NCBI RefSeq assembly: GCF_000017845.1
Contig: NC_010546.1
Location: 3,510,001-3,542,000, forward strand
Length of the DNA stretch: 32,000 nt
Origin: Crocosphaera subtropica ATCC 51142
GTDB taxonomy: Bacteria; Cyanobacteriota; Cyanobacteriia; Cyanobacteriales; Microcystaceae
Reading direction: 5' to 3'
The position numbers and the translations under genes were made by a program. Position 1 is the first letter of the stretch, and every line of letters begins with the position of its first letter. The notes beneath the pieces are model-generated. The model saw only the letters and a list, made by a program, of their open reading frames with translations, did not search any database and was not told the DNA's origin. This document shows, one piece after another, positions 10,468-25,768 of the stretch.

Positions 10468-11394
10468 ATGAGAATCTTAGTCACGGGTGGTGCTGGTTTC
10501 ATTGGGTCCCATCTCATTGATCGCTTAATGGAACAGGGACACGAAGTCCTCTGCTTAGATAACTTTTATACTGGCCACAAACGCAATATTCTTAAGTGGT
10601 TTGGTAATCCTTATTTTGAGTTGATCCGACACGATATTACGGAACCCATCCGTTTAGAAGTGGATCAAATCTATCATTTAGCTTGTCCTGCTTCTCCTAT
10701 TCATTATCAATTTAATCCCGTTAAAACCATCAAAGTTAATGTGTTAGGGACTTTGTATATGTTGGGTTTGGCTAAACGAGTAAATGCCCGTATCCTCTTG
10801 GCTTCGACTTCAGAAGTTTACGGTGATCCCGATGTTCATCCTCAACCAGAAGAATATCGAGGTAACGTCAGTTGTACGGGGTTACGAGCTTGTTACGATG
10901 AAGGAAAACGGGTGGCCGAAACCCTCGCTTTTGAATATCATCGAGAACACAAAACCGACATTCGAGTGGCACGCATTTTTAATACTTACGGACCAAGAAT
11001 GTTAGAAAATGATGGTCGGGTAGTTAGTAACTTTATTGTACAAGCCCTAAAAGGAAAACCCTTGACTGTTTATGGTGATGGCTCTCAAACTCGAAGTTTT
11101 TGCTATGTTTCTGATTTAGTTGAAGGGTTAATGCGTCTGATGAATGGAGATTATATTGGCCCTATTAACTTAGGAAATCCAGGGGAATATACCATCTTAG
11201 AACTAGCTCAAATGATTCAAGGAATGATTAATCCTGACACTGAGTTAGTGTATAAACCCTTACCTCAAGATGATCCCAAACAAAGACAGCCAGATATTAC
11301 TAAGGCAAAAACTTATTTAGGTTGGGAACCAACGATTCCTTTAAAAGAAGGCTTAGAATTAGCTATTAAGGATTTCCGAGAACGAGTATCTTAA
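10468..11394 (+). CDS. UDP-glucuronate decarboxylase (UDP-xylose synthase), SDR family
   Basis: 308 aa. '[14 protein letters not shown]', '[10 protein letters not shown]', 'STSEVYGDP' and 'YDEGKR' (YxxxK) are typical of UXS. Confidence 0.9.
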
Positions 11395-11514
11395 AGACAG
11401 TTAAACTGTTCCTAGGATAGCTTTGTTTAAAATACTTCTAACTCATATTTGAGGTTGTTGTATCATCCCTAGAATGTCTTGCTTTAAACAATATAAATTT
11501 AGAGGATAAAATTT

Positions 11515-12864
11515 ATGCGTGTTTGTGTCATTGGAACTGGTTATGTTGGCTTAGTGACTGGGGTTTGTTTATCTCATATTGGCCATCATGTTATTTGTAT
11601 TGATAATAATGAGGAAAAGGTTAAACTGATGAAGTCTGGTCAGTCACCTATTTATGAACCGGGCCTCTCTGAATTAATGCACGGTTGTATGGAAGCAGGC
11701 CGTTTAGAATTTACCTCAGATTTAGCAGCCGGTGTTGACCACGGAGAAATCCTCTTTATTGCCGTAGGAACCCCTGCTTTACCTACCGGAGAAAGCGATA
11801 CCCGTTATGTTGAAGCGGTAGCCAGAGGCATTGGTGAAAATCTAAATGGGGGTTACAAGGTCATTGTTAACAAGTCTACGGTTCCCATTGGTTCGGGAGA
11901 CTGGGTGAGAATGATTGTGATGGATGGGTTGGCTAAACGGGAAGAGTCACCTGCTACTGTCGAGTTTGATGTAGTCAGTAACCCTGAATTTTTACGGGAA
12001 GGTTCGGCGGTTTACGATACGTTTAACCCTGATCGCATTGTTCTCGGTAGCAATAGTGATCAAGCGATCGCTATGATGCAAGAACTCTATCAACCTTTGG
12101 TAGATCGCAAATTTGCTGAACAACAAGCCTTACCTCCGGTTCCTGTGGTAGTCACGGACTTAAACTCTGCTGAGATGATCAAATACGCTGCTAATGCTTT
12201 CTTAGCTACTAAAATTAGTTTCATTAACGAAGTAGCCAATATCTGCGATCGGGTTGGGGCTGATGTAACTCAAGTGGCTGCTGGTATTGGTTTAGATTCT
12301 CGTATTGGTAATAAATTCTTACAAGCTGGAATTGGTTGGGGCGGATCTTGTTTTCCTAAAGATGTTCTGGCTTTAATTCATACAGCCAGTGATTACAATT
12401 ACGAGACGGAATTACTCAATGCTGCTGTTCATGTGAACAAGCGACAACGATTAATTGCTGTTGAAAAATTACAACAAGAATTAAAAATTCTCAAAGGAAA
12501 GACCATCGGTTTATTAGGCTTAACTTTTAAACCAGATACTGATGATATGCGAGATGCACCGTCTTTAATTATCATTGAACAGTTAAACCGTCTAGGGGCT
12601 AAAGTTAAAGCTTATGACCCGATTGTATCTCAATCTGGCCTCAGTCACGGCTTATCAGGGGTTCTTATTGAAACAGACCCGGAAATGTTAGCTGATAGTT
12701 GTGATGCGCTGGTTTTAGTCACAGATTGGAAAGAATTCCTAACCTTGAATTATGGAAAAATGGCACAAGTGATGGCTAATCCTGTCATTATCGATGGCCG
12801 TAATTTCCTGGATCGTTCTAAATTAGAAATGGCTGGTTTCCATTATGTGGGAATTGGACGTTAA
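11515..12864 (+). CDS. ugd: UDP-glucose 6-dehydrogenase
   Basis: 449 aa. 'VIGTGYVGLVTG', 'NPEFLREG', 'GWGGSCFPKD' (catalytic Cys) and 'LTFKPDTDDMRDAPS'. Confidence 0.92.
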   Translation: MRVCVIGTGYVGLVTGVCLSHIGHHVICIDNNEEKVKLMKSGQSPIYEPGLSELMHGCMEAGRLEFTSDLAAGVDHGEILFIAVGTPALPTGESDTRYVEAVARGIGENLNGGYKVIVNKSTVPIGSGDWVRMIVMDGLAKREESPATVEFDVVSNPEFLREGSAVYDTFNPDRIVLGSNSDQAIAMMQELYQPLVDRKFAEQQALPPVPVVVTDLNSAEMIKYAANAFLATKISFINEVANICDRVGADVTQVAAGIGLDSRIGNKFLQAGIGWGGSCFPKDVLALIHTASDYNYETELLNAAVHVNKRQRLIAVEKLQQELKILKGKTIGLLGLTFKPDTDDMRDAPSLIIIEQLNRLGAKVKAYDPIVSQSGLSHGLSGVLIETDPEMLADSCDALVLVTDWKEFLTLNYGKMAQVMANPVIIDGRNFLDRSKLEMAGFHYVGIGR

Positions 12865-15085: not shown

Positions 15086-17089
15086 TTATCGAGAAGGGGT
15101 CAAACTCCGTTGGAAACTCAACAACCGTAACCATAAACCTGGATATCGTTGTCGTAACTCGTCAGGGAGTTGTTTCAAAGCTTGGGGAAACCAGGAAGCA
15201 AACAGTAGATTTTTGATGCTATCAGCAGTAAATTCAAAATAAGATCCAAGCCAACGGAGTAAATCTTGATTACCTGCCATTTCCCAGATCCAAAGCAATA
15301 AAGCAGGGTTTTTACTGGCAGCTTTTAAAGCTAGTCGGGTGAACATCAACCAAGTTGTCCTATCCTTGATAAAGGTATCAGCTACTTCGGGGGAAGAGTC
15401 AGCCAATAGACCAAAAAACGTATTTAACATGGCATTAATACGCTCTGGTGGCAAGATTTTTCCTGTAGGAACCATCATTCCTTTAGAAAATAACCAAGTG
15501 ACTGCTACATTACTTTGATATGCCCGAATTTGGTTTAAATCCTTTGCTTTTACTAGATCATGTTTTAAACAAAAATCTAATAAATAGGTTAATTTATCTA
15601 AATTACGGACTAAAGAACCAAAACCAGTGAAAATTAAGGGGGATTGCAGGGAGGCTGCGTCTCCGATAGCGACCAGTCGATCAAAAGCTACCTTGCGATC
15701 GCTTTTACTGACACTGAAATGACCTGGAATATAACCAAAGGTTGGCTTTTTCCAAGTCAATTTTTCTGGGTCACATCGACGATATTCGGGCAAAATATTG
15801 AAGAAATCTTCATACATTTCTAATAACGAACCAGGGTTATTAGAATGAACTTGATGATAATGAAATAGATAAATAGTTAATTCATCTCCTTCCCCTGGAA
15901 ATAACTCCCAAATGAGTTGCCTCCCACGGGAAATATCACCATGAGAGTTTAAAACATCACCATATTTACTATCCCAAACTTCAGGGCTAAACCCTTCAAT
16001 AACAGCCCCAACTGTAGGACAAACACTGTCAAATGTCCGCTTACCATTGAGTTGCCAAGCAATAGGAGAAGCAGTTCCCATAGCATCAACTAATAAACGT
16101 CCTCTAACTGCTTTCGTTTCTGCTGTTTCTAAATCAACTAAACTAACTGTTACTCCTTCTGGATAAATTGTCCCTTTGATAAATTCCGTTCTCTCCCAAA
16201 TTTCTCCCCCTGCTTGTTTTAATTTTTGACCACAGAGGTTAAGAAATTTGGTTGTATCAATGGCGATATTTAAAACTTTTGGAGTATGTAATACATCGGC
16301 TTTTAAATGAGGAGGATTGTTACCATCAAAAAACTTATTAAATCCATCAATATATTCTTTAGCAATAATGGATTCAAATTCATCAAGAGTCAATAACCCC
16401 AAATCAATCAAACTTTGAAACTCAGACCGAGAAATATTCCACTCACGGTTCATGCGTCCAAATACTAACCGTTCTACCAGTAAAACTCGATAGCCTAATT
16501 GTGCCATGACAGCAGCGTGAATGACCCCTAAAGCCCCACCAACATAGATTAGGTCATAGGCAATGGTCGAAGGTTTGTAAGGCTGATTTTGTTGAAAAAT
16601 GACCTGTTTAGGTTCTTGGGGATTTTTGACCCCTTCTCGCCATCGTTTTTCCCACCAATAGACCCGTTGCAAATCTGTATCCCCTTGGGGCATTTTGCGA
16701 AAAAAATGCACTGTTTTAGGGTAATAAGCTTCTAAGGCATCAAAAATTGAGGAAGGGGAAGCATCGATTTCTGGTAACTCAGGATATTGCTGAGGAAATG
16801 CTGTTCTGATCTCATTTTCCAACTGACGACAGACGTTTGCTTGTGAGGGAAAAGGTTTGTTTCCCCAACGAAAAATTTTCAGATAAGTGGTTCGTTGTAC
16901 AGACCAGATGAAGATAGATAATTCTGTCTCTTCTGCTGAGGATGGAGAAATCTCAGAAACAACTTGTAAACGAACCCCATCTGGTGTAATCTTTTTTTTG
17001 CCGATTATGGGAGTCCAAGACTCTTGTAGCCAATGACACACCTCACGGGTGTTAGGGTTGGGAATTTCTAGATAAGTAATTTCCTTCAT
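15086..17089 (-). CDS. FAD-dependent oxidoreductase, CruA/CruP-type lycopene-cyclase-like, with long N-terminal extension
   Basis: 667-aa ORF. Dinucleotide-binding beta-alpha-beta motif 'YDLIYVGGALGVIHAAVMAQLGYRVLLVER' sits ~175 aa from the N-terminus. 'LLVDAMG' and 'VAIGDAA' are flavoprotein motifs. The CruA resemblance is from memory and unverified. Confidence refers to function; the CDS itself is near-certain. Confidence 0.5.
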   Translation of the reverse strand: MKEITYLEIPNPNTREVCHWLQESWTPIIGKKKITPDGVRLQVVSEISPSSAEETELSIFIWSVQRTTYLKIFRWGNKPFPSQANVCRQLENEIRTAFPQQYPELPEIDASPSSIFDALEAYYPKTVHFFRKMPQGDTDLQRVYWWEKRWREGVKNPQEPKQVIFQQNQPYKPSTIAYDLIYVGGALGVIHAAVMAQLGYRVLLVERLVFGRMNREWNISRSEFQSLIDLGLLTLDEFESIIAKEYIDGFNKFFDGNNPPHLKADVLHTPKVLNIAIDTTKFLNLCGQKLKQAGGEIWERTEFIKGTIYPEGVTVSLVDLETAETKAVRGRLLVDAMGTASPIAWQLNGKRTFDSVCPTVGAVIEGFSPEVWDSKYGDVLNSHGDISRGRQLIWELFPGEGDELTIYLFHYHQVHSNNPGSLLEMYEDFFNILPEYRRCDPEKLTWKKPTFGYIPGHFSVSKSDRKVAFDRLVAIGDAASLQSPLIFTGFGSLVRNLDKLTYLLDFCLKHDLVKAKDLNQIRAYQSNVAVTWLFSKGMMVPTGKILPPERINAMLNTFFGLLADSSPEVADTFIKDRTTWLMFTRLALKAASKNPALLLWIWEMAGNQDLLRWLGSYFEFTADSIKNLLFASWFPQALKQLPDELRQRYPGLWLRLLSFQRSLTPSR

Positions 17090-17208
17090 TGCGGTATGTT
17101 AAGAAAATCAAAATTAAGCAAAAGTACAGATTTCATTGGGTTGAAAGTAAGCTAAACTTTCCGTTACTGTATTCTGAGAGACGCTTAAAAAAAGTTTACA
17201 TTTTGTGA

Positions 17209-17469
17209 TTGATTCAGACAATTGACGATACCTTTATGCATTATCCCATTCCAGAGAGTCCAGAAGAAATATTTGCCCTCCGCAGTAAGCCAGTTGATGA
17301 GGAAATGATCGCCGTTGCCATTACTGGAGTTGTGAATCTTGCTCGTTCTCAGGGACAGTCCTTAGACGAGTTAACCGCTGAAGTGTTACAAGATGATCCC
17401 CTGTTGGATAGAGTCCAACGTCGTTGGTTAAGTGATTTAGTTCGCCAAGCATGGCAAGCTTTTCCTTAA
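17209..17469 (+). CDS. Hypothetical small protein
   Basis: 86-aa ORF from a TTG start. An ATG at 17236 (MHYPIPE...) is the more likely start. No recognisable domain. Confidence 0.4.
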   Translation: MIQTIDDTFMHYPIPESPEEIFALRSKPVDEEMIAVAITGVVNLARSQGQSLDELTAEVLQDDPLLDRVQRRWLSDLVRQAWQAFP

Positions 17470-17542
17470 ATCAGTCTCTATACTTGAAAGGGACAAAGTT
17501 TTCTAGTGTTGGAAAATAGGGAATCCCCTCGTTCTTTAATGA

Positions 17543-18013
17543 TTAAATATTACTGAGTAAAAATTTTTTCATTTTTAAACAGTTTCTTTCATAATCAACC
17601 CGAATATAATCTAATTGATCAGTTAATTTATCCATAAAAAAAAGCCCGCGCTCGCTCTCTAATTCTAAAGGATCAACATTTTGTTGTGTCAGTTCAGTTA
17701 ATTTAGCTTTTAGATCGAAAAACGGTCCTTGGTTCCAAATCAGAATATCAACCCAAGTCTGATAAAAATTAACATTGATAATAATAGGTGCTGTTACTGG
17801 TAAGTTTTCATGAGCATAGAGGACTGTATTAGTAAACCCTTCGGATAAAGCCAGTTTACACTCCCATAAGATTTTAGGGGGTAAATAGGGTTTAGCAATA
17901 GTTTCAAACCAAATTAATACTTTTTCTAATGCTATAATTTCAGTCTTAACAGTGAGTTGGAAAGGCTTAAGCAAAGATTGATTATTATTCCCTGTGTTAT
18001 TAGACGGCACCAC
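17543..18013 (-). CDS. Anti-sigma regulatory factor-type serine kinase (RsbW/SpoIIAB-like, GHKL HATPase_c_2)
   Basis: 156 aa. N-box-like 'LSEGFTNTVLYAH', 'ILIWNQGPFFD', and G2-like 'ERGLFFMDKLTDQLDY'. The GTG start at 18013 overlaps the upstream gene by 14 nt (an alternative TTG lies ~40 nt downstream). Confidence 0.7.
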   Translation of the reverse strand: MVPSNNTGNNNQSLLKPFQLTVKTEIIALEKVLIWFETIAKPYLPPKILWECKLALSEGFTNTVLYAHENLPVTAPIIINVNFYQTWVDILIWNQGPFFDLKAKLTELTQQNVDPLELESERGLFFMDKLTDQLDYIRVDYERNCLKMKKFLLSNI

Positions 18014-19010
18014 TATTCTTATGAAATAAAATTAACACAGTCTTCAAGATAAGTTGAAGATCGTACCAATGACTCCAATTTTTTTGATACCTGAGGTCTA
18101 GTTCAATCACCTGTTCAAAATTGGTAATTCGCGATCGCCCGTATACTTGCCACTCTCCTGTCATACCGGGTTTAACATTCAAGCGTTGCCATTGGGGAAC
18201 TTCATAGCGTTCGACTTCGTCAGGAGTTGGGGGACGGGTTCCCACTAAACTCATTTCTCCTTTTAAGACATTCCAAAATTGCGGTAATTCGTCTAAGCTA
18301 GTACGCCGTAAAAAACGCCCAACTCTGGTAATACGGGGGTCATGGGTATTTTTAAAGATAGCTCCTTGGGCTTGGTTGGGAACTTTCTGTTTTAGGGCTT
18401 CAGCATCGGCACACATGGAACGAAATTTAATAATTTGAAAGCGTTTTCCTAGCCAACCACAACGAGTTTGATAAAAAAAGACTGGACCTGGACTATCTAA
18501 CTTGATGGTGATAGCGATGGGGATATATAAAAAAGCGGTAATGAGCAAACCCACCAAACTGCCTACAATATCTATCGTCCGTTTTATCCAAGATCGAACA
18601 GAGGGATGGGTTTCTGGGGGTTGTGCAGAACCGATAGTAGATTGATAGGTTTCGAGGGTAGTGGTGATAGGAATCACCTCATCCAGTCCCGTCATGGATA
18701 ATACTGCCATGACTGGGGGAGGAGTTTGGTAAAGAATCAGAGAAACATTGTTATTTTTAGCGGCCTTAAAGTTATGGACTAAAGCACCTACCCCACTACT
18801 ATCCATAAATTCAGTTTGATTGAAGTCTAAAATTAGCTGTTTAGGAAGCGAACCAGAGGCTAAAAATCGATGACAGACCTGCTTGAAATGTACCGCCTCT
18901 AATACGGTGAGACGTTTGGGCATTTTCATTACAGGGTAATTGTCAACAATAACAATGGGGAAGGGAGTTTCTGGTGTTTGGATAGTCATCACCGGTTCTG
19001 GATTGTCCAT
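18000..19010 (-). CDS. STAS-domain / bacterial sugar transferase fusion (polyprenyl-phosphate phosphoglycosyl transferase)
   Basis: 336 aa. N-terminal ~115 aa is SpoIIAA/STAS-like with 'DFNQTEFMDSSGVGALV'. Next comes the hydrophobic helix 'IDIVGSLVGLLITAFLYIPIAITI'. The C-terminal part is a Bac_transf domain ('FYQTRCG', 'FRSM', 'DPRITRVGRFLRRTSLDELPQFWNVLKGEMSLVGTRPP', 'KPGMTGEWQV'). Confidence 0.85.
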   Translation of the reverse strand: MDNPEPVMTIQTPETPFPIVIVDNYPVMKMPKRLTVLEAVHFKQVCHRFLASGSLPKQLILDFNQTEFMDSSGVGALVHNFKAAKNNNVSLILYQTPPPVMAVLSMTGLDEVIPITTTLETYQSTIGSAQPPETHPSVRSWIKRTIDIVGSLVGLLITAFLYIPIAITIKLDSPGPVFFYQTRCGWLGKRFQIIKFRSMCADAEALKQKVPNQAQGAIFKNTHDPRITRVGRFLRRTSLDELPQFWNVLKGEMSLVGTRPPTPDEVERYEVPQWQRLNVKPGMTGEWQVYGRSRITNFEQVIELDLRYQKNWSHWYDLQLILKTVLILFHKNSGAV

Positions 19011-19015
19011 TGAGA

Positions 19016-19663
19016 TCAGCGCAGGGGACGCTTTCCTTTTTCCTGCTGCATTTTTTCTTTTGCCTTACTTGCACTGCGTCTAAGGGCTTGGAGACGAGAT
19101 TCATATTGCTTCCGTTGCCGGCGGTTAGGGGTTTGTTCGATGAGTGTTTTAAAGGCACTCCCAAGACTTTTATAGGCGTTGGGCAAAGTATAACCAAAAC
19201 GGGTGGCTAAGGCAATAGCTTTTTCATCCGCTTCAATAGATTCTTTTAATTTCCGTTCTCCGTTATTTTTTTGCCAAAGTCGATACCCAGAAATACCACA
19301 GAGGGATAAGGCTAAGAGGAGAAGCAACCCGTCTTGTACCCAAAGTTCTCCCACTGCCCCACCTAAACCGATAGCTAGGGCGGCCATCTCCCATCCTTCT
19401 CTGGGAATGGTATCGTTTTGAATACGGGCAACTTCGTGCCAGAATAATAGATTGCGCTGGTCAATGGCTAAATTTTCCCATTTAGCTAAGTCGATTTGAA
19501 TCTCTACTTCGTCTCTTCCTAATTCTTCACAGCGTATGAGGGGAGGATTGATTTCCGTACTCCCTTCTACCATTACCCAGTTTTGTAATTCTGGAGGCAG
19601 TAATGTTTTTAACCGCCTTAGCTCACTCATCTCTGCTCTAGCAGAAGAAGTTACATAGGTCAT
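19016..19663 (-). CDS. Conserved cyanobacterial membrane protein (possibly DUF3318)
   Basis: 215 aa. Two central hydrophobic helices (AALAIGLGGAVGELW / LLLLLALSLCGISGY) and a basic C-terminal tail. Its stop lies 5 nt before the start of the STAS-transferase gene. Family name is from memory only. Confidence 0.4.
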   Translation of the reverse strand: MTYVTSSARAEMSELRRLKTLLPPELQNWVMVEGSTEINPPLIRCEELGRDEVEIQIDLAKWENLAIDQRNLLFWHEVARIQNDTIPREGWEMAALAIGLGGAVGELWVQDGLLLLLALSLCGISGYRLWQKNNGERKLKESIEADEKAIALATRFGYTLPNAYKSLGSAFKTLIEQTPNRRQRKQYESRLQALRRSASKAKEKMQQEKGKRPLR

Positions 19664-19901
19664 AATCTTATAATACTTCTTTTATTCATTATCTCAGGAT
19701 TTTATCTTAGCAAAAATCTGGGTTTAAAGCCTTATGGTTTTCGAGGGACTTGCCTTAAAGAAATGGTTTTGTAAAAAACCGAACCTTTGGGGACGGGTTT
19801 CACCATAATTTCTAATTCTCCCAATTTTTACATTTCGTTACAATGGGATTAAGAAACAGCGATATAAGATAAAATCGCTGACACGATAGGAGGTTATTCA
19901 T

Positions 19902-21023
19902 ATGAATAACAATATAAGAGTTGGAAATTTATTTGGTATTCCTTTCTATGTTAACCCCTCATGGTTTTTAGTGTTAGGGTTAGTTACTTTTAGTTATGGA
20001 GGACAGTTAGCCTACTTTCAACAGTTGAATGGAATTGTCCCTTGGATTTTGGGTTTTGTTGCTGCTATTTTATTATTCGCTTCTGTATTAGCCCACGAAT
20101 TAGGTCATAGTTTTGTGGCGATTTCTCAAGGAATTGAGGTTAAATCTATTACCTTATTCTTGTTCGGAGGATTAGCTAGTTTAGAGAAGGAATCTGACAG
20201 TCCGTTAGAGGCTTTTTTAGTAGCGATCGCAGGTCCTGTGGTTAGTTTATTACTCGCTGCTATTCTTTTCATTGTTGCTTTTAATGTTTCTTTTCCGGCA
20301 CCTATTGAAGCCATTATTGAACTGTTAGCTTCGATTAACTTAGTGTTAGGATTATTTAACTTAATTCCTGGTCTACCTTTAGATGGGGGAAATATCTTAA
20401 AATCTCTTGTCTGGAAGATTACAGGAAACCCCAACAAAGGGATTATTTTTGCTAGTCGTGTCGGTCAAGTATTCGGCTGGTTGGCGGTTGGCGTTGGTGG
20501 TTTATCCATCTTAGGAATTATCCAATTTGGTAACTTTTGGACGCTATTAATCGGTTTCTTCTTATTACAAAATGCTGGTGTTTCTGCCCAATCTGCACAA
20601 GTACAAGAAACCCTCAATGGTTATACAGCAGAAGATGCCGTCATTCCTGATAGTCCCATTGTTTCGAGTGAGTTAACGATTCGTGAATTTGTCAATGAGT
20701 ATGTCATTGGTAAAAATCAGTGGAGAAAGTTTCTAGTTGTTAACGAAGAAGGGAATTTATCAGGGGTTTTAGAAGTAGAAGGATTGAAAAAGATTCCTAC
20801 CTCTGATTGGACTGAAATTAAGGTTTCGGAGGTCATGGAACCTGTCAAAGACTTAATTACGATTAAGTCAGATGAAACCCTGTTAGAAGTAGTAAAAATG
20901 CTAGAAAATGATCCTCAAAAACAACTAACTGTGATTGGAGATAATGGAAAAGTTCTAGGGTTACTTGAGAAAAATTCCATTATTAAGTTACTGGAAAAAG
21001 ACAAACAAGCTCAAGCTGCCTAA
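19902..21023 (+). CDS. Site-2 protease family (M50) zinc metalloprotease with C-terminal CBS pair
   Basis: 373 aa. 'HELGHS' zinc motif in a TM helix, 'NLIPGLPLDGG' second motif, and a CBS-like C-terminal ~130 aa. Shine-Dalgarno 'aggagg' lies 8 nt upstream. Confidence 0.88.
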   Translation: MNNNIRVGNLFGIPFYVNPSWFLVLGLVTFSYGGQLAYFQQLNGIVPWILGFVAAILLFASVLAHELGHSFVAISQGIEVKSITLFLFGGLASLEKESDSPLEAFLVAIAGPVVSLLLAAILFIVAFNVSFPAPIEAIIELLASINLVLGLFNLIPGLPLDGGNILKSLVWKITGNPNKGIIFASRVGQVFGWLAVGVGGLSILGIIQFGNFWTLLIGFFLLQNAGVSAQSAQVQETLNGYTAEDAVIPDSPIVSSELTIREFVNEYVIGKNQWRKFLVVNEEGNLSGVLEVEGLKKIPTSDWTEIKVSEVMEPVKDLITIKSDETLLEVVKMLENDPQKQLTVIGDNGKVLGLLEKNSIIKLLEKDKQAQAA

Positions 21024-25129: not shown

Positions 25130-25768
25130 ATGAGTTTAACGTTATATTTTTTACGTCACGGTGAAACAGAAAGTAGTCTTAAAGATAGTTTTTGTGGCAC
25201 CCTTGATCCTGATTTAACGCCTCAAGGAAAAGAAATGGCAAAAGCGTTTGCTGATGCTTATAAATCCTTTGATTGGTCTGCTATTTATGTGAGTCCCATG
25301 AAGCGGACTATTGCCACTGCAAAACCTCTTTGTGACGCAACAGGAATGGAAATGCAGATCAAAGATGGACTGAAAGAAATGAATTTTGGTCAATGGGAAA
25401 ATCGTACCCGTGACTGGGTTAAAGAGCATGATTTAGAGGCATATATTGACTGGATGACGGAACCGGCTTGGAACCCTCCTCCTGATGGAGAAACGGCGGT
25501 AGAAGTGGGTAGCCGTGCCATGTTAGTTATATCAGAAATTGAAGCAAACTATCCTGATGGTAAAGTGTTAGTGGTTGCTCATAAAACAACAATTAGAATT
25601 ATTTTATGTCATTTATTAGGCATTGATTTGGGACGTTATCGTGACCGTATTGATATGTTAGCAGCATCAGTAAGTATTATTGAATTCGGGTTACATGGTC
25701 CTTTATTGAAAAAATTAGGCGATCGCTCCTACATGAGTCAAGAATTACAAGATCGTGCAGGGACTTAA
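25130..25768 (+). CDS. Histidine phosphatase family protein (phosphoglycerate mutase-like)
   Basis: 212 aa. 'LYFLRHGET' catalytic RHG motif, 'VVAHKTTIR' second His motif, and an SD 'aggag' upstream. Confidence 0.85.
   Translation: MSLTLYFLRHGETESSLKDSFCGTLDPDLTPQGKEMAKAFADAYKSFDWSAIYVSPMKRTIATAKPLCDATGMEMQIKDGLKEMNFGQWENRTRDWVKEHDLEAYIDWMTEPAWNPPPDGETAVEVGSRAMLVISEIEANYPDGKVLVVAHKTTIRIILCHLLGIDLGRYRDRIDMLAASVSIIEFGLHGPLLKKLGDRSYMSQELQDRAGT

Follow-up and report, generated by a model that had tools for sequence, protein, structure and literature searches.

Can a partner-switching kinase act directly on a glycan-priming enzyme when its STAS domain target is part of that enzyme, and neither a sigma factor nor a phosphatase gene lies nearby? 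This question is raised by three genes of the cyanobacterium Crocosphaera subtropica (Cyanothece sp. ATCC 51142), found in a 32,000-nucleotide stretch of its genome (contig NC_010546.1, positions 3,510,001 to 3,542,000), which we call the window and whose own numbering we use. All three open reading frames (ORFs) lie on the minus strand: a gene for a DUF3318 protein (19016-19663, 215 aa), the first of the trio; a gene, cce_3429, that fuses a STAS domain to a Bac_transf phosphoglycosyl transferase (PGT) domain (18000-19010, 336-aa ORF); and a gene for an RsbW/SpoIIAB-type GHKL protein (17543-18013, 156 aa, GTG start). A gap of 5 nt (19011-19015) separates the first two, and the last two overlap by 14 nt (18000-18013), which suggests that fusion and kinase are translationally coupled. 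Through PGTs, scarce polyprenyl phosphate becomes committed to a single glycan pathway, and the post-translational control of these enzymes is poorly understood.

A preliminary description of the window, made from its letters alone, had reported the same packing of the three genes, and the ORF coordinates confirm it. It had also inferred that the RsbW-type kinase gates glycan initiation post-translationally, by acting on the serine of the enzyme-attached STAS domain. This core idea holds for All4160 of Anabaena, the protein to which we assign cce_3429 as an orthologue, while the accompanying remark that no functional characterisation of such an arrangement was known is out of date: the study of All4160 by Harada, Matsuoka and Ehira appeared in Mol Microbiol in June 2026, after a preprint in April 2026 (PMC13555669). 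The reading that we favour, and consider reasonably probable, is that the locus is the Crocosphaera version of this system, in which phosphorylation of the STAS domain by the kinase would turn PGT priming off, a distally encoded phosphatase would turn it on, and the DUF3318 protein would be an accessory.

The STAS-PGT fusion and its orthologue All4160

The fusion ORF is a 100% match to C. subtropica WP_024750362.1 (ACB52777.1, cce_3429), for which RefSeq places the start at Met8 of the ORF (coordinate 18989), giving a protein of 329 aa. All three Pfam models that had been suggested for the trio matched their proteins: PF01740 for the STAS domain (3.3e-14, 53 bits against a cutoff of 22.6), PF02397 for the Bac_transf domain (3.9e-67, profile positions 1-178 of 179) and PF13581 for the kinase (1.3e-15). 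The STAS domain (18651-18941, minus strand) spans residues 24-120 of the ORF. It also scored 60.5 against a cutoff of 53.45 with TIGR00377, the anti-sigma-antagonist superfamily of NCBIfam, and its sequence matches in the PDB are the anti-sigma antagonists TM1442, SpoIIAA and RsbV. The motif FMDSSGVG is encoded at 18786-18809 (minus strand), and its first serine, Ser71 (codon 18798-18800, minus strand; Ser64 in the 329-aa numbering), is the predicted phospho-acceptor, which corresponds to Ser74 of All4160 in an alignment of the FMDSSG motifs and is the equivalent of Ser58 of SpoIIAA. The preliminary description had made its proposal depend on the conservation of this serine in orthologues; we found it in all 40 aligned homologues, and also in every fusion ORF with a STAS match among the genome loci considered below.

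Regarding the catalytic part, the Bac_transf domain (18024-18584, minus strand, residues 143-329) contains an Asp-Glu pair in the motif SLDELPQ (D233/E234) that is invariant in the homologue alignment, and it matched the sequences of WbaP structures at 4e-43. With TIGR03025 (EPS_sugtrans, exopolysaccharide [EPS] polyprenyl glycosylphosphotransferase) the fusion reached 295.0 bits against a cutoff of 295.55, and this miss by half a bit is probably why RefSeq names the protein ‘anti-sigma factor antagonist’ instead of glycosylphosphotransferase. Hydropathy places a single hydrophobic helix between the STAS and the catalytic part (18492-18578, minus strand, residues 145-173, TIDIVGSLVGLLITAFLYIPIAITIKLDS). 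Its Pro157 (329-aa numbering) is invariant, and the matches to the PDB sequences of WbaP and PglC start at this helix; by homology to these two proteins, it probably corresponds to the re-entrant membrane helix known from monotopic PGTs. Taken together, Pfam, NCBIfam and hydropathy bear out the earlier picture of a STAS domain with the FMDSSGVG motif, a membrane helix and a complete Bac_transf domain in one protein.

In a model of the fusion built with AlphaFold 2 (AF2) from the 40-sequence alignment, the STAS domain had a pLDDT of 80-90 and the overall pTM was 0.38; the linker was disordered, parts of the PGT domain were of low confidence, and the hydrophobic segment 145-173 was rendered as one long helix with moderate confidence. 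PglC and the C-terminal domain of WbaP/WcaJ, both monotopic PGTs, share with the window protein the full Bac_transf domain, the Asp-Glu pair and the N-terminal hydrophobic helix with its invariant proline. They differ from it in what precedes the helix, which is a cytoplasmic STAS domain at the N-terminus of the window PGT, a four-helix membrane bundle together with a domain of unknown function (DUF) in WbaP, and no domain at all in PglC.

The precedent for such a protein is All4160, which has the STAS plus Bac_transf architecture and is needed for the heterocyst envelope polysaccharide (PMC13555669). Two RsbW-type kinases, Alr3423 and All2284, bind its STAS domain and phosphorylate Ser74 in vitro. 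The S74A allele of All4160 bypasses the loss of the REC-SpoIIE phosphatase HenR, and deletion of alr3423 suppresses the henR defect; with this genetic support, the authors concluded that phosphorylation inactivates All4160 and that HenR reactivates it (PMC13555669). The same study describes STAS-glycosyltransferase fusions as widespread in cyanobacteria and rare elsewhere, and mentions that XssP of Synechocystis has the same domains and that a further STAS-glycosyltransferase gene, all2285, adjoins the kinase gene all2284 (PMC13555669).

We found All4160 through cluster membership as BAB75859.1 (our P0350), a protein of 351 aa from Nostoc sp. PCC 7120. The first serine of its MDSSG motif is residue 74, that is, the residue mutated in the published work (PMC13555669), and its locus (L086) contains no adjacent kinase gene, which fits all4160 and not all2285. 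The window fusion is 62.9% identical to All4160, compared with 49.7% to XssP over 314 residues. A neighbour-joining tree built on the PGT domain unites the window fusion with All4160 in a clade that branches internally along taxonomic groups, with XssP and small PGTs devoid of a STAS domain outside it. Moreover, the all4160 locus has a DUF3318 gene upstream on the same strand, as in the window. Because of this identity, the shared PGT-domain clade and the upstream DUF3318 synteny, we assign cce_3429 as the orthologue of All4160, in a comparison in which XssP represented the paralogues. In Nostoc sp. TCL26-01 we also noticed a second STAS-PGT copy on the same 6.77-Mb replicon (P0320 and P0235), whose 76% identity to All4160 points to a recent duplication in some Nostocales.

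XssP, encoded on pSYSM of Synechocystis, is the priming enzyme for synechan in the xss cluster, and its known regulation is transcriptional, via XssS/R/Q (Maeda et al. 2021, PMC8205485). It resembles the window fusion in its STAS-like N-terminus and its Bac_transf domain, but it is a paralogue lying outside the clade of All4160 and has no adjacent kinase or DUF3318 gene. Its STAS-like domain (L081:6019-6972) reads VLDSAAIV where the fusions read FMDSSGxG, so that the first serine is kept and the glycine residues are lost. XssP may be regulated differently from All4160.

Conserved neighbours of the fusion gene

We compared 51 fusion loci, 43 from a genome scan and eight from look-ups of the encoding contigs. 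The kinase gene lies immediately downstream of the fusion gene at 18 of the 49 informative loci, belonging to several orders (at the two further loci the flanks were too short); these loci come from Crocosphaera, Rippkaea, Aphanothece, Gloeothece, Microcystis, Spirulina, Planktothrix, Limnothrix, Laspinema and several metagenome-assembled genomes (MAGs). A DUF3318 gene precedes the fusion on the same strand at 32 of the 51 loci. These include most of the Nostocales loci, where it is 0.3-3 kb away; in Chroococcales it is the direct neighbour, at 16-200 nt. Within Chroococcales, the trio is kept amid differing flanks in Crocosphaera, Rippkaea PCC 8801, Aphanothece sacrum, Gloeothece PCC 7424 and Microcystis, and the 14-nt overlap between fusion and kinase is identical in C. 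chwakensis, Microcystis, Aphanothece and Gloeothece. The expectation that kinase and fusion are syntenic in related genomes was thus borne out for Chroococcales; it does not extend to 31 of the 49 loci, including all those of Nostocales, where the two genes are unlinked.

Among the 136 other neighbouring ORFs at 30 loci, scanned with Pfam, no family was present at more than four loci, and phosphatases and sigma factors were both missing from the recurrent families. This leaves the kinase and DUF3318 as the only conserved neighbours of the fusion. Since the fusion recurs throughout cyanobacteria and these two neighbours recur across orders, the arrangement of the trio is not due to chance. By contrast, no phosphatase recurs beside the fusion loci, and it is therefore evidently encoded elsewhere in the genome, like henR in Anabaena.

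The window itself gave the same picture. We considered all 30 of its ORFs of at least 90 aa and scanned the plausible ones with Pfam: none contains a SpoIIE/PP2C or a sigma-70 domain, in agreement with the preliminary description, and no free-standing single-domain STAS antagonist is present in the 32 kb, the sole STAS domain being the PGT-fused one. The locus shares with SpoIIAA/SpoIIAB/SpoIIE-sigmaF and RsbV/RsbW/RsbU,P-sigmaB a STAS domain with the DSSG serine, a GHKL serine kinase of the HATPase_c_2 family and the expectation of a PP2C phosphatase. It departs from this canonical partner switching in its output, a STAS-fused enzyme and not a sigma factor, and in having no gene for a sigma factor or a phosphatase nearby.

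Compared with All4160/HenR/Alr3423 of Anabaena sp. PCC 7120, the likenesses (STAS plus Bac_transf, 63% identity, same clade, same serine, upstream DUF3318 gene, RsbW-type partner) come with differences in layout. In Anabaena, the kinase gene alr3423 and the phosphatase gene henR are unlinked to all4160, and a radical-SAM gene lies between the DUF3318 gene and all4160; in the window, a gap of 5 nt follows the DUF3318 gene, the genes for fusion and kinase overlap, and the G1-box Asp of the kinase is replaced by Asn. A second Anabaena arrangement, all2283-all2284-all2285 (free STAS protein, RsbW-like kinase, STAS-glycosyltransferase), resembles the window in that the kinase gene adjoins a STAS-glycosyltransferase gene, and All2284 has been proposed as the cognate regulator of All2285 (PMC13555669). 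That pair sits within the all2283-all2293 EPS cluster together with a free STAS protein, whereas the window trio has neither a glycan cluster nor a free STAS protein, and the window fusion groups with All4160.

The DUF3318 protein (PF11780, 1.5e-48) is predicted to lie in the membrane; it has a hydrophobic hairpin at about residues 90-125 and a Lys/Arg-rich C-terminal tail. It is 78-98% identical across cyanobacteria. The suggestion that this upstream membrane protein could be the sensor or scaffold stands in part: conserved synteny backs its membership of the system, in which it may have such a role. The fusion-kinase pair of Aphanothece sacrum is preceded by two DUF3318 genes in tandem (204 and 216 aa; L088:984-2472).

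Some loci depart from the common pattern. By inspection of the alignment, the STAS-PGT of Pseudanabaena sp. Salubria-1 is contained in an ORF of 738 aa (L049:2879-5095) with some 400 extra N-terminal residues, which may be a triple fusion with a further glycosyltransferase-like domain. At one locus, a 352-aa ORF with a HATPase_c_2-like region (L008:5397-6452, minus strand) lies about 3 kb from the fusion gene, and at another a second STAS-like ORF does so (L034:8250-8585, minus strand); in these lineages there may be further partner-switching components near the fusion. Fusion and kinase genes of the cyanobacterial type were also found in MAG records labelled as Tabrizicola sp. (Alphaproteobacteria, L035) and Candidatus Gracilibacteria (P0021), for which mis-binning or mislabelling is more likely than a real occurrence outside cyanobacteria.

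The RsbW-like protein and the proposed control of the transferase

According to the reading that we favour, the fusion would be a small monotopic PGT that primes a polysaccharide on polyprenyl phosphate, with its N-terminal cytoplasmic STAS domain as a built-in phospho-switch. The translationally coupled RsbW-type protein would bind the STAS domain and phosphorylate Ser71, which by analogy with All4160 would turn the transferase off, and a distal HenR-like SpoIIE/PP2C phosphatase would strip the phosphate and turn it on. The co-transcribed DUF3318 membrane protein would be a conserved accessory, possibly a scaffold or a signal input. Here we infer that the adjacent protein is the cognate kinase, active despite its Asn94, and that regulation in Crocosphaera has the direction proposed for Anabaena. 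The heterocyst envelope polysaccharide, for which All4160 is needed, cannot be the product in Crocosphaera, a unicellular organism without heterocysts; there, the glycan must be another or a more general one.

Several points weigh against this reading. Even in Anabaena, the direct evidence for phosphorylation of All4160 comes from work in vitro (PMC13555669). No Crocosphaera phosphatase was identified in the 32-kb window and the 30 orthologous neighbourhoods covered, and the kinase gene is missing from the downstream flank at the 31 informative loci mentioned above. The AF2 model of the fusion, with its pTM of 0.38, does not bring the STAS and PGT domains into confident contact. The adjacent kinase is only a putative orthologue of Alr3423, the in vivo kinase of All4160; the clusters of the ten top kinase matches have members from Crocosphaera sp. 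Alani8, Allocoleopsis and Stenomitos, with no entry from PCC 7120. Finally, it is uncertain whether the window kinase phosphorylates at all, because the Asp of its G1 box is replaced by Asn.

The protein is a small GHKL protein of the RsbW/SpoIIAB type, as had been described, with the G1 substitution having been overlooked. Its NCBIfam scores are far under the equivalog cutoffs (NF003144, 31.6 against 145, 9e-08; TIGR01924, 25.5 against 155; TIGR01925, 15.8 against 135), so we classify it by sequence as a member of the HATPase_c_2 family and not as an RsbW or SpoIIAB equivalog. The subfamily is small, with 212 representative clusters at E ≤ 1e-3 out of 1.84 billion proteins. The N-box (EGFTNTVLYAH, matching the pattern EGFTNxVxxAH) and a G2-like RGLFF motif are intact. 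The G1-box position (LIWNQG) is occupied by Asn94 (codon AAC, 17732-17734, minus strand), and among 146 family representatives covering this column 142 have Asp, two Asn and one Ser, the remaining one being a probable misalignment. The Asn is found in C. subtropica, C. chwakensis, the Crocosphaera MAG L087 and Crocosphaera sp. UHCC 0190 (three of the four other Crocosphaera genomes examined), and because four genomes share it we rejected a sequencing error. Crocosphaera sp. Alani8 (78% identical) has Asp, as do Rippkaea, Aphanothece, Gloeothece, Microcystis and others.

In GHKL proteins, the G1-box Asp binds the amino group (N6) of adenine, and its replacement by Asn generally abolishes nucleotide binding, as in Hsp90 D79N and GyrB D73N. 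Hence, one could argue that the Crocosphaera protein is a pseudokinase that has lost ATP binding and controls the PGT by stoichiometric binding to the unphosphorylated STAS domain, with any phosphorylation of Ser71 left to another kinase. The complex in which SpoIIAB-ADP holds SpoIIAA would be the model for such binding-only control. The rarity of Asn at this position and its presence in four genomes speak for this alternative, and so does the selection acting on the gene: dN/dS values within Crocosphaera are about 0.10 for the kinase, about 0.07 for the fusion and 0.02-0.03 for DUF3318, indicating purifying selection on all three, and therefore a kinase protein that is in use. In addition, the S74A STAS domain of All4160 binds the kinases more strongly than the wild type (PMC13555669), which makes tight non-catalytic complexes plausible. 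Nevertheless, we consider a pseudokinase rather unlikely. Activity may persist, since adenine N6 can still donate its hydrogen bond to an Asn side chain; both the N-box and the G2-like motif are intact; and the phospho-acceptor serine is invariant in the Crocosphaera fusions. The retention of Asp in strain Alani8 means that the position toggles by a single transition inside the genus, and the change may be tolerated and not reflect a functional shift.

A wider scenario, which we think unlikely, starts from the same substitution. Here an ancestral membrane module of DUF3318, STAS-PGT and RsbW-like proteins would gate a housekeeping envelope or EPS glycan of cyanobacteria and would later have been recruited by Nostocales for the heterocyst envelope; the Crocosphaera kinase would now be an ATP-binding-deficient pseudokinase that regulates by reversible binding, and DUF3318 would be the membrane signal input.

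Another possibility is that the enzyme is not the regulated output. The main target of the RsbW-like protein would then be a distally encoded sigma factor, and the STAS domain on the PGT would sequester the RsbW-like protein at the membrane, reporting the state of glycan synthesis to transcription. The nearest solved structure to the window kinase is indeed that of the anti-sigma factor RsbW (6m36_A, E 0.0045). By our reasoning, the Anabaena genetics (henR-, S74A, alr3423- and all4160-) fit this possibility as well as they fit a direct action on the enzyme, and cannot separate the two, since an assay of PGT activity was not part of the report (PMC13555669). The statement of the preliminary description that the STAS domain does not titrate an anti-sigma factor thus goes further than the data, these genetics included. 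We nonetheless hold it to be quite improbable: no sigma factor is encoded in the window and none recurs beside the fusion at the 30 loci, the small kinase subfamily often travels with the fusion, and a covalent enzyme fusion with translational coupling and no free partner is most simply explained by control in cis.

That the genes are mere neighbours, with the STAS domain serving only for oligomerisation or membrane targeting and the HATPase_c_2 protein belonging to an unrelated partner-switching circuit, could be argued from the non-adjacency of the kinase at most loci outside Chroococcales and some Oscillatoriales and from the paralogue XssP, with DSAA for DSSG and no adjacent kinase, but it is very improbable given the 14-nt overlap retained in distant genera, the trio retained amid unrelated flanks, the invariant serine and the direct experimental evidence for the orthologue All4160 (PMC13555669).

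Flanking genes and significance of the locus

On the plus strand of the window, genes for a NAD-dependent epimerase/dehydratase and a UDP-glucose/GDP-mannose dehydrogenase (10468-12864) lie about 5 kb from the trio. We rejected such nearby sugar-nucleotide genes as members of the system: they are more than 4.6 kb off, past two unrelated genes, and none recur beside the orthologues. A His_Phos_1 gene (25130-25768) was likewise rejected as the missing phosphatase, being of the wrong superfamily and not syntenic. Convergent toward the kinase gene is an ORF of 86 aa without a Pfam match (17209-17469, plus strand). At the equivalent position, C. chwakensis and Rippkaea have small convergent genes (77-93 aa), and Crocosphaera sp. 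UHCC 0190 and the MAG L087 have a FeThRed_A gene (ferredoxin-thioredoxin reductase variable chain). A 667-aa protein with a weak match to FAD_binding_3 and the geranylgeranyl-reductase family adjoins the trio both in the window (15086-17089, minus strand) and in C. chwakensis (L082:4812-6815). A scan of 17000-20100 for promoters and terminators was uninformative (nine promoter-like sites against 7.8 expected, no terminators), and a literature search on cce_3428/3429/3430 and on DUF3318 returned no papers.

The fusion architecture, its regulatory logic and adjacent kinase/STAS-glycosyltransferase pairs are all already published, so cce_3429 adds an orthologue and not a new concept. What is new here is that the locus can be assigned to the family of All4160 orthologues, that the DUF3318-fusion-kinase trio is conserved in Chroococcales and broken up in Nostocales, and that the kinase has undergone a lineage-specific Asp-to-Asn change. 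With the concept unchanged, two leads emerge: the very highly conserved DUF3318 membrane protein as a candidate third component, and the natural variation between Asp and Asn in the kinase. The work on All4160 established that a phospho-switch of the partner-switching type can sit directly on a PGT (PMC13555669). According to our results, the module is also present in a unicellular diazotroph, with the kinase gene physically coupled to the enzyme gene, and the ‘heterocyst’ enzyme is part of an orthologue family that spans non-heterocystous cyanobacteria.

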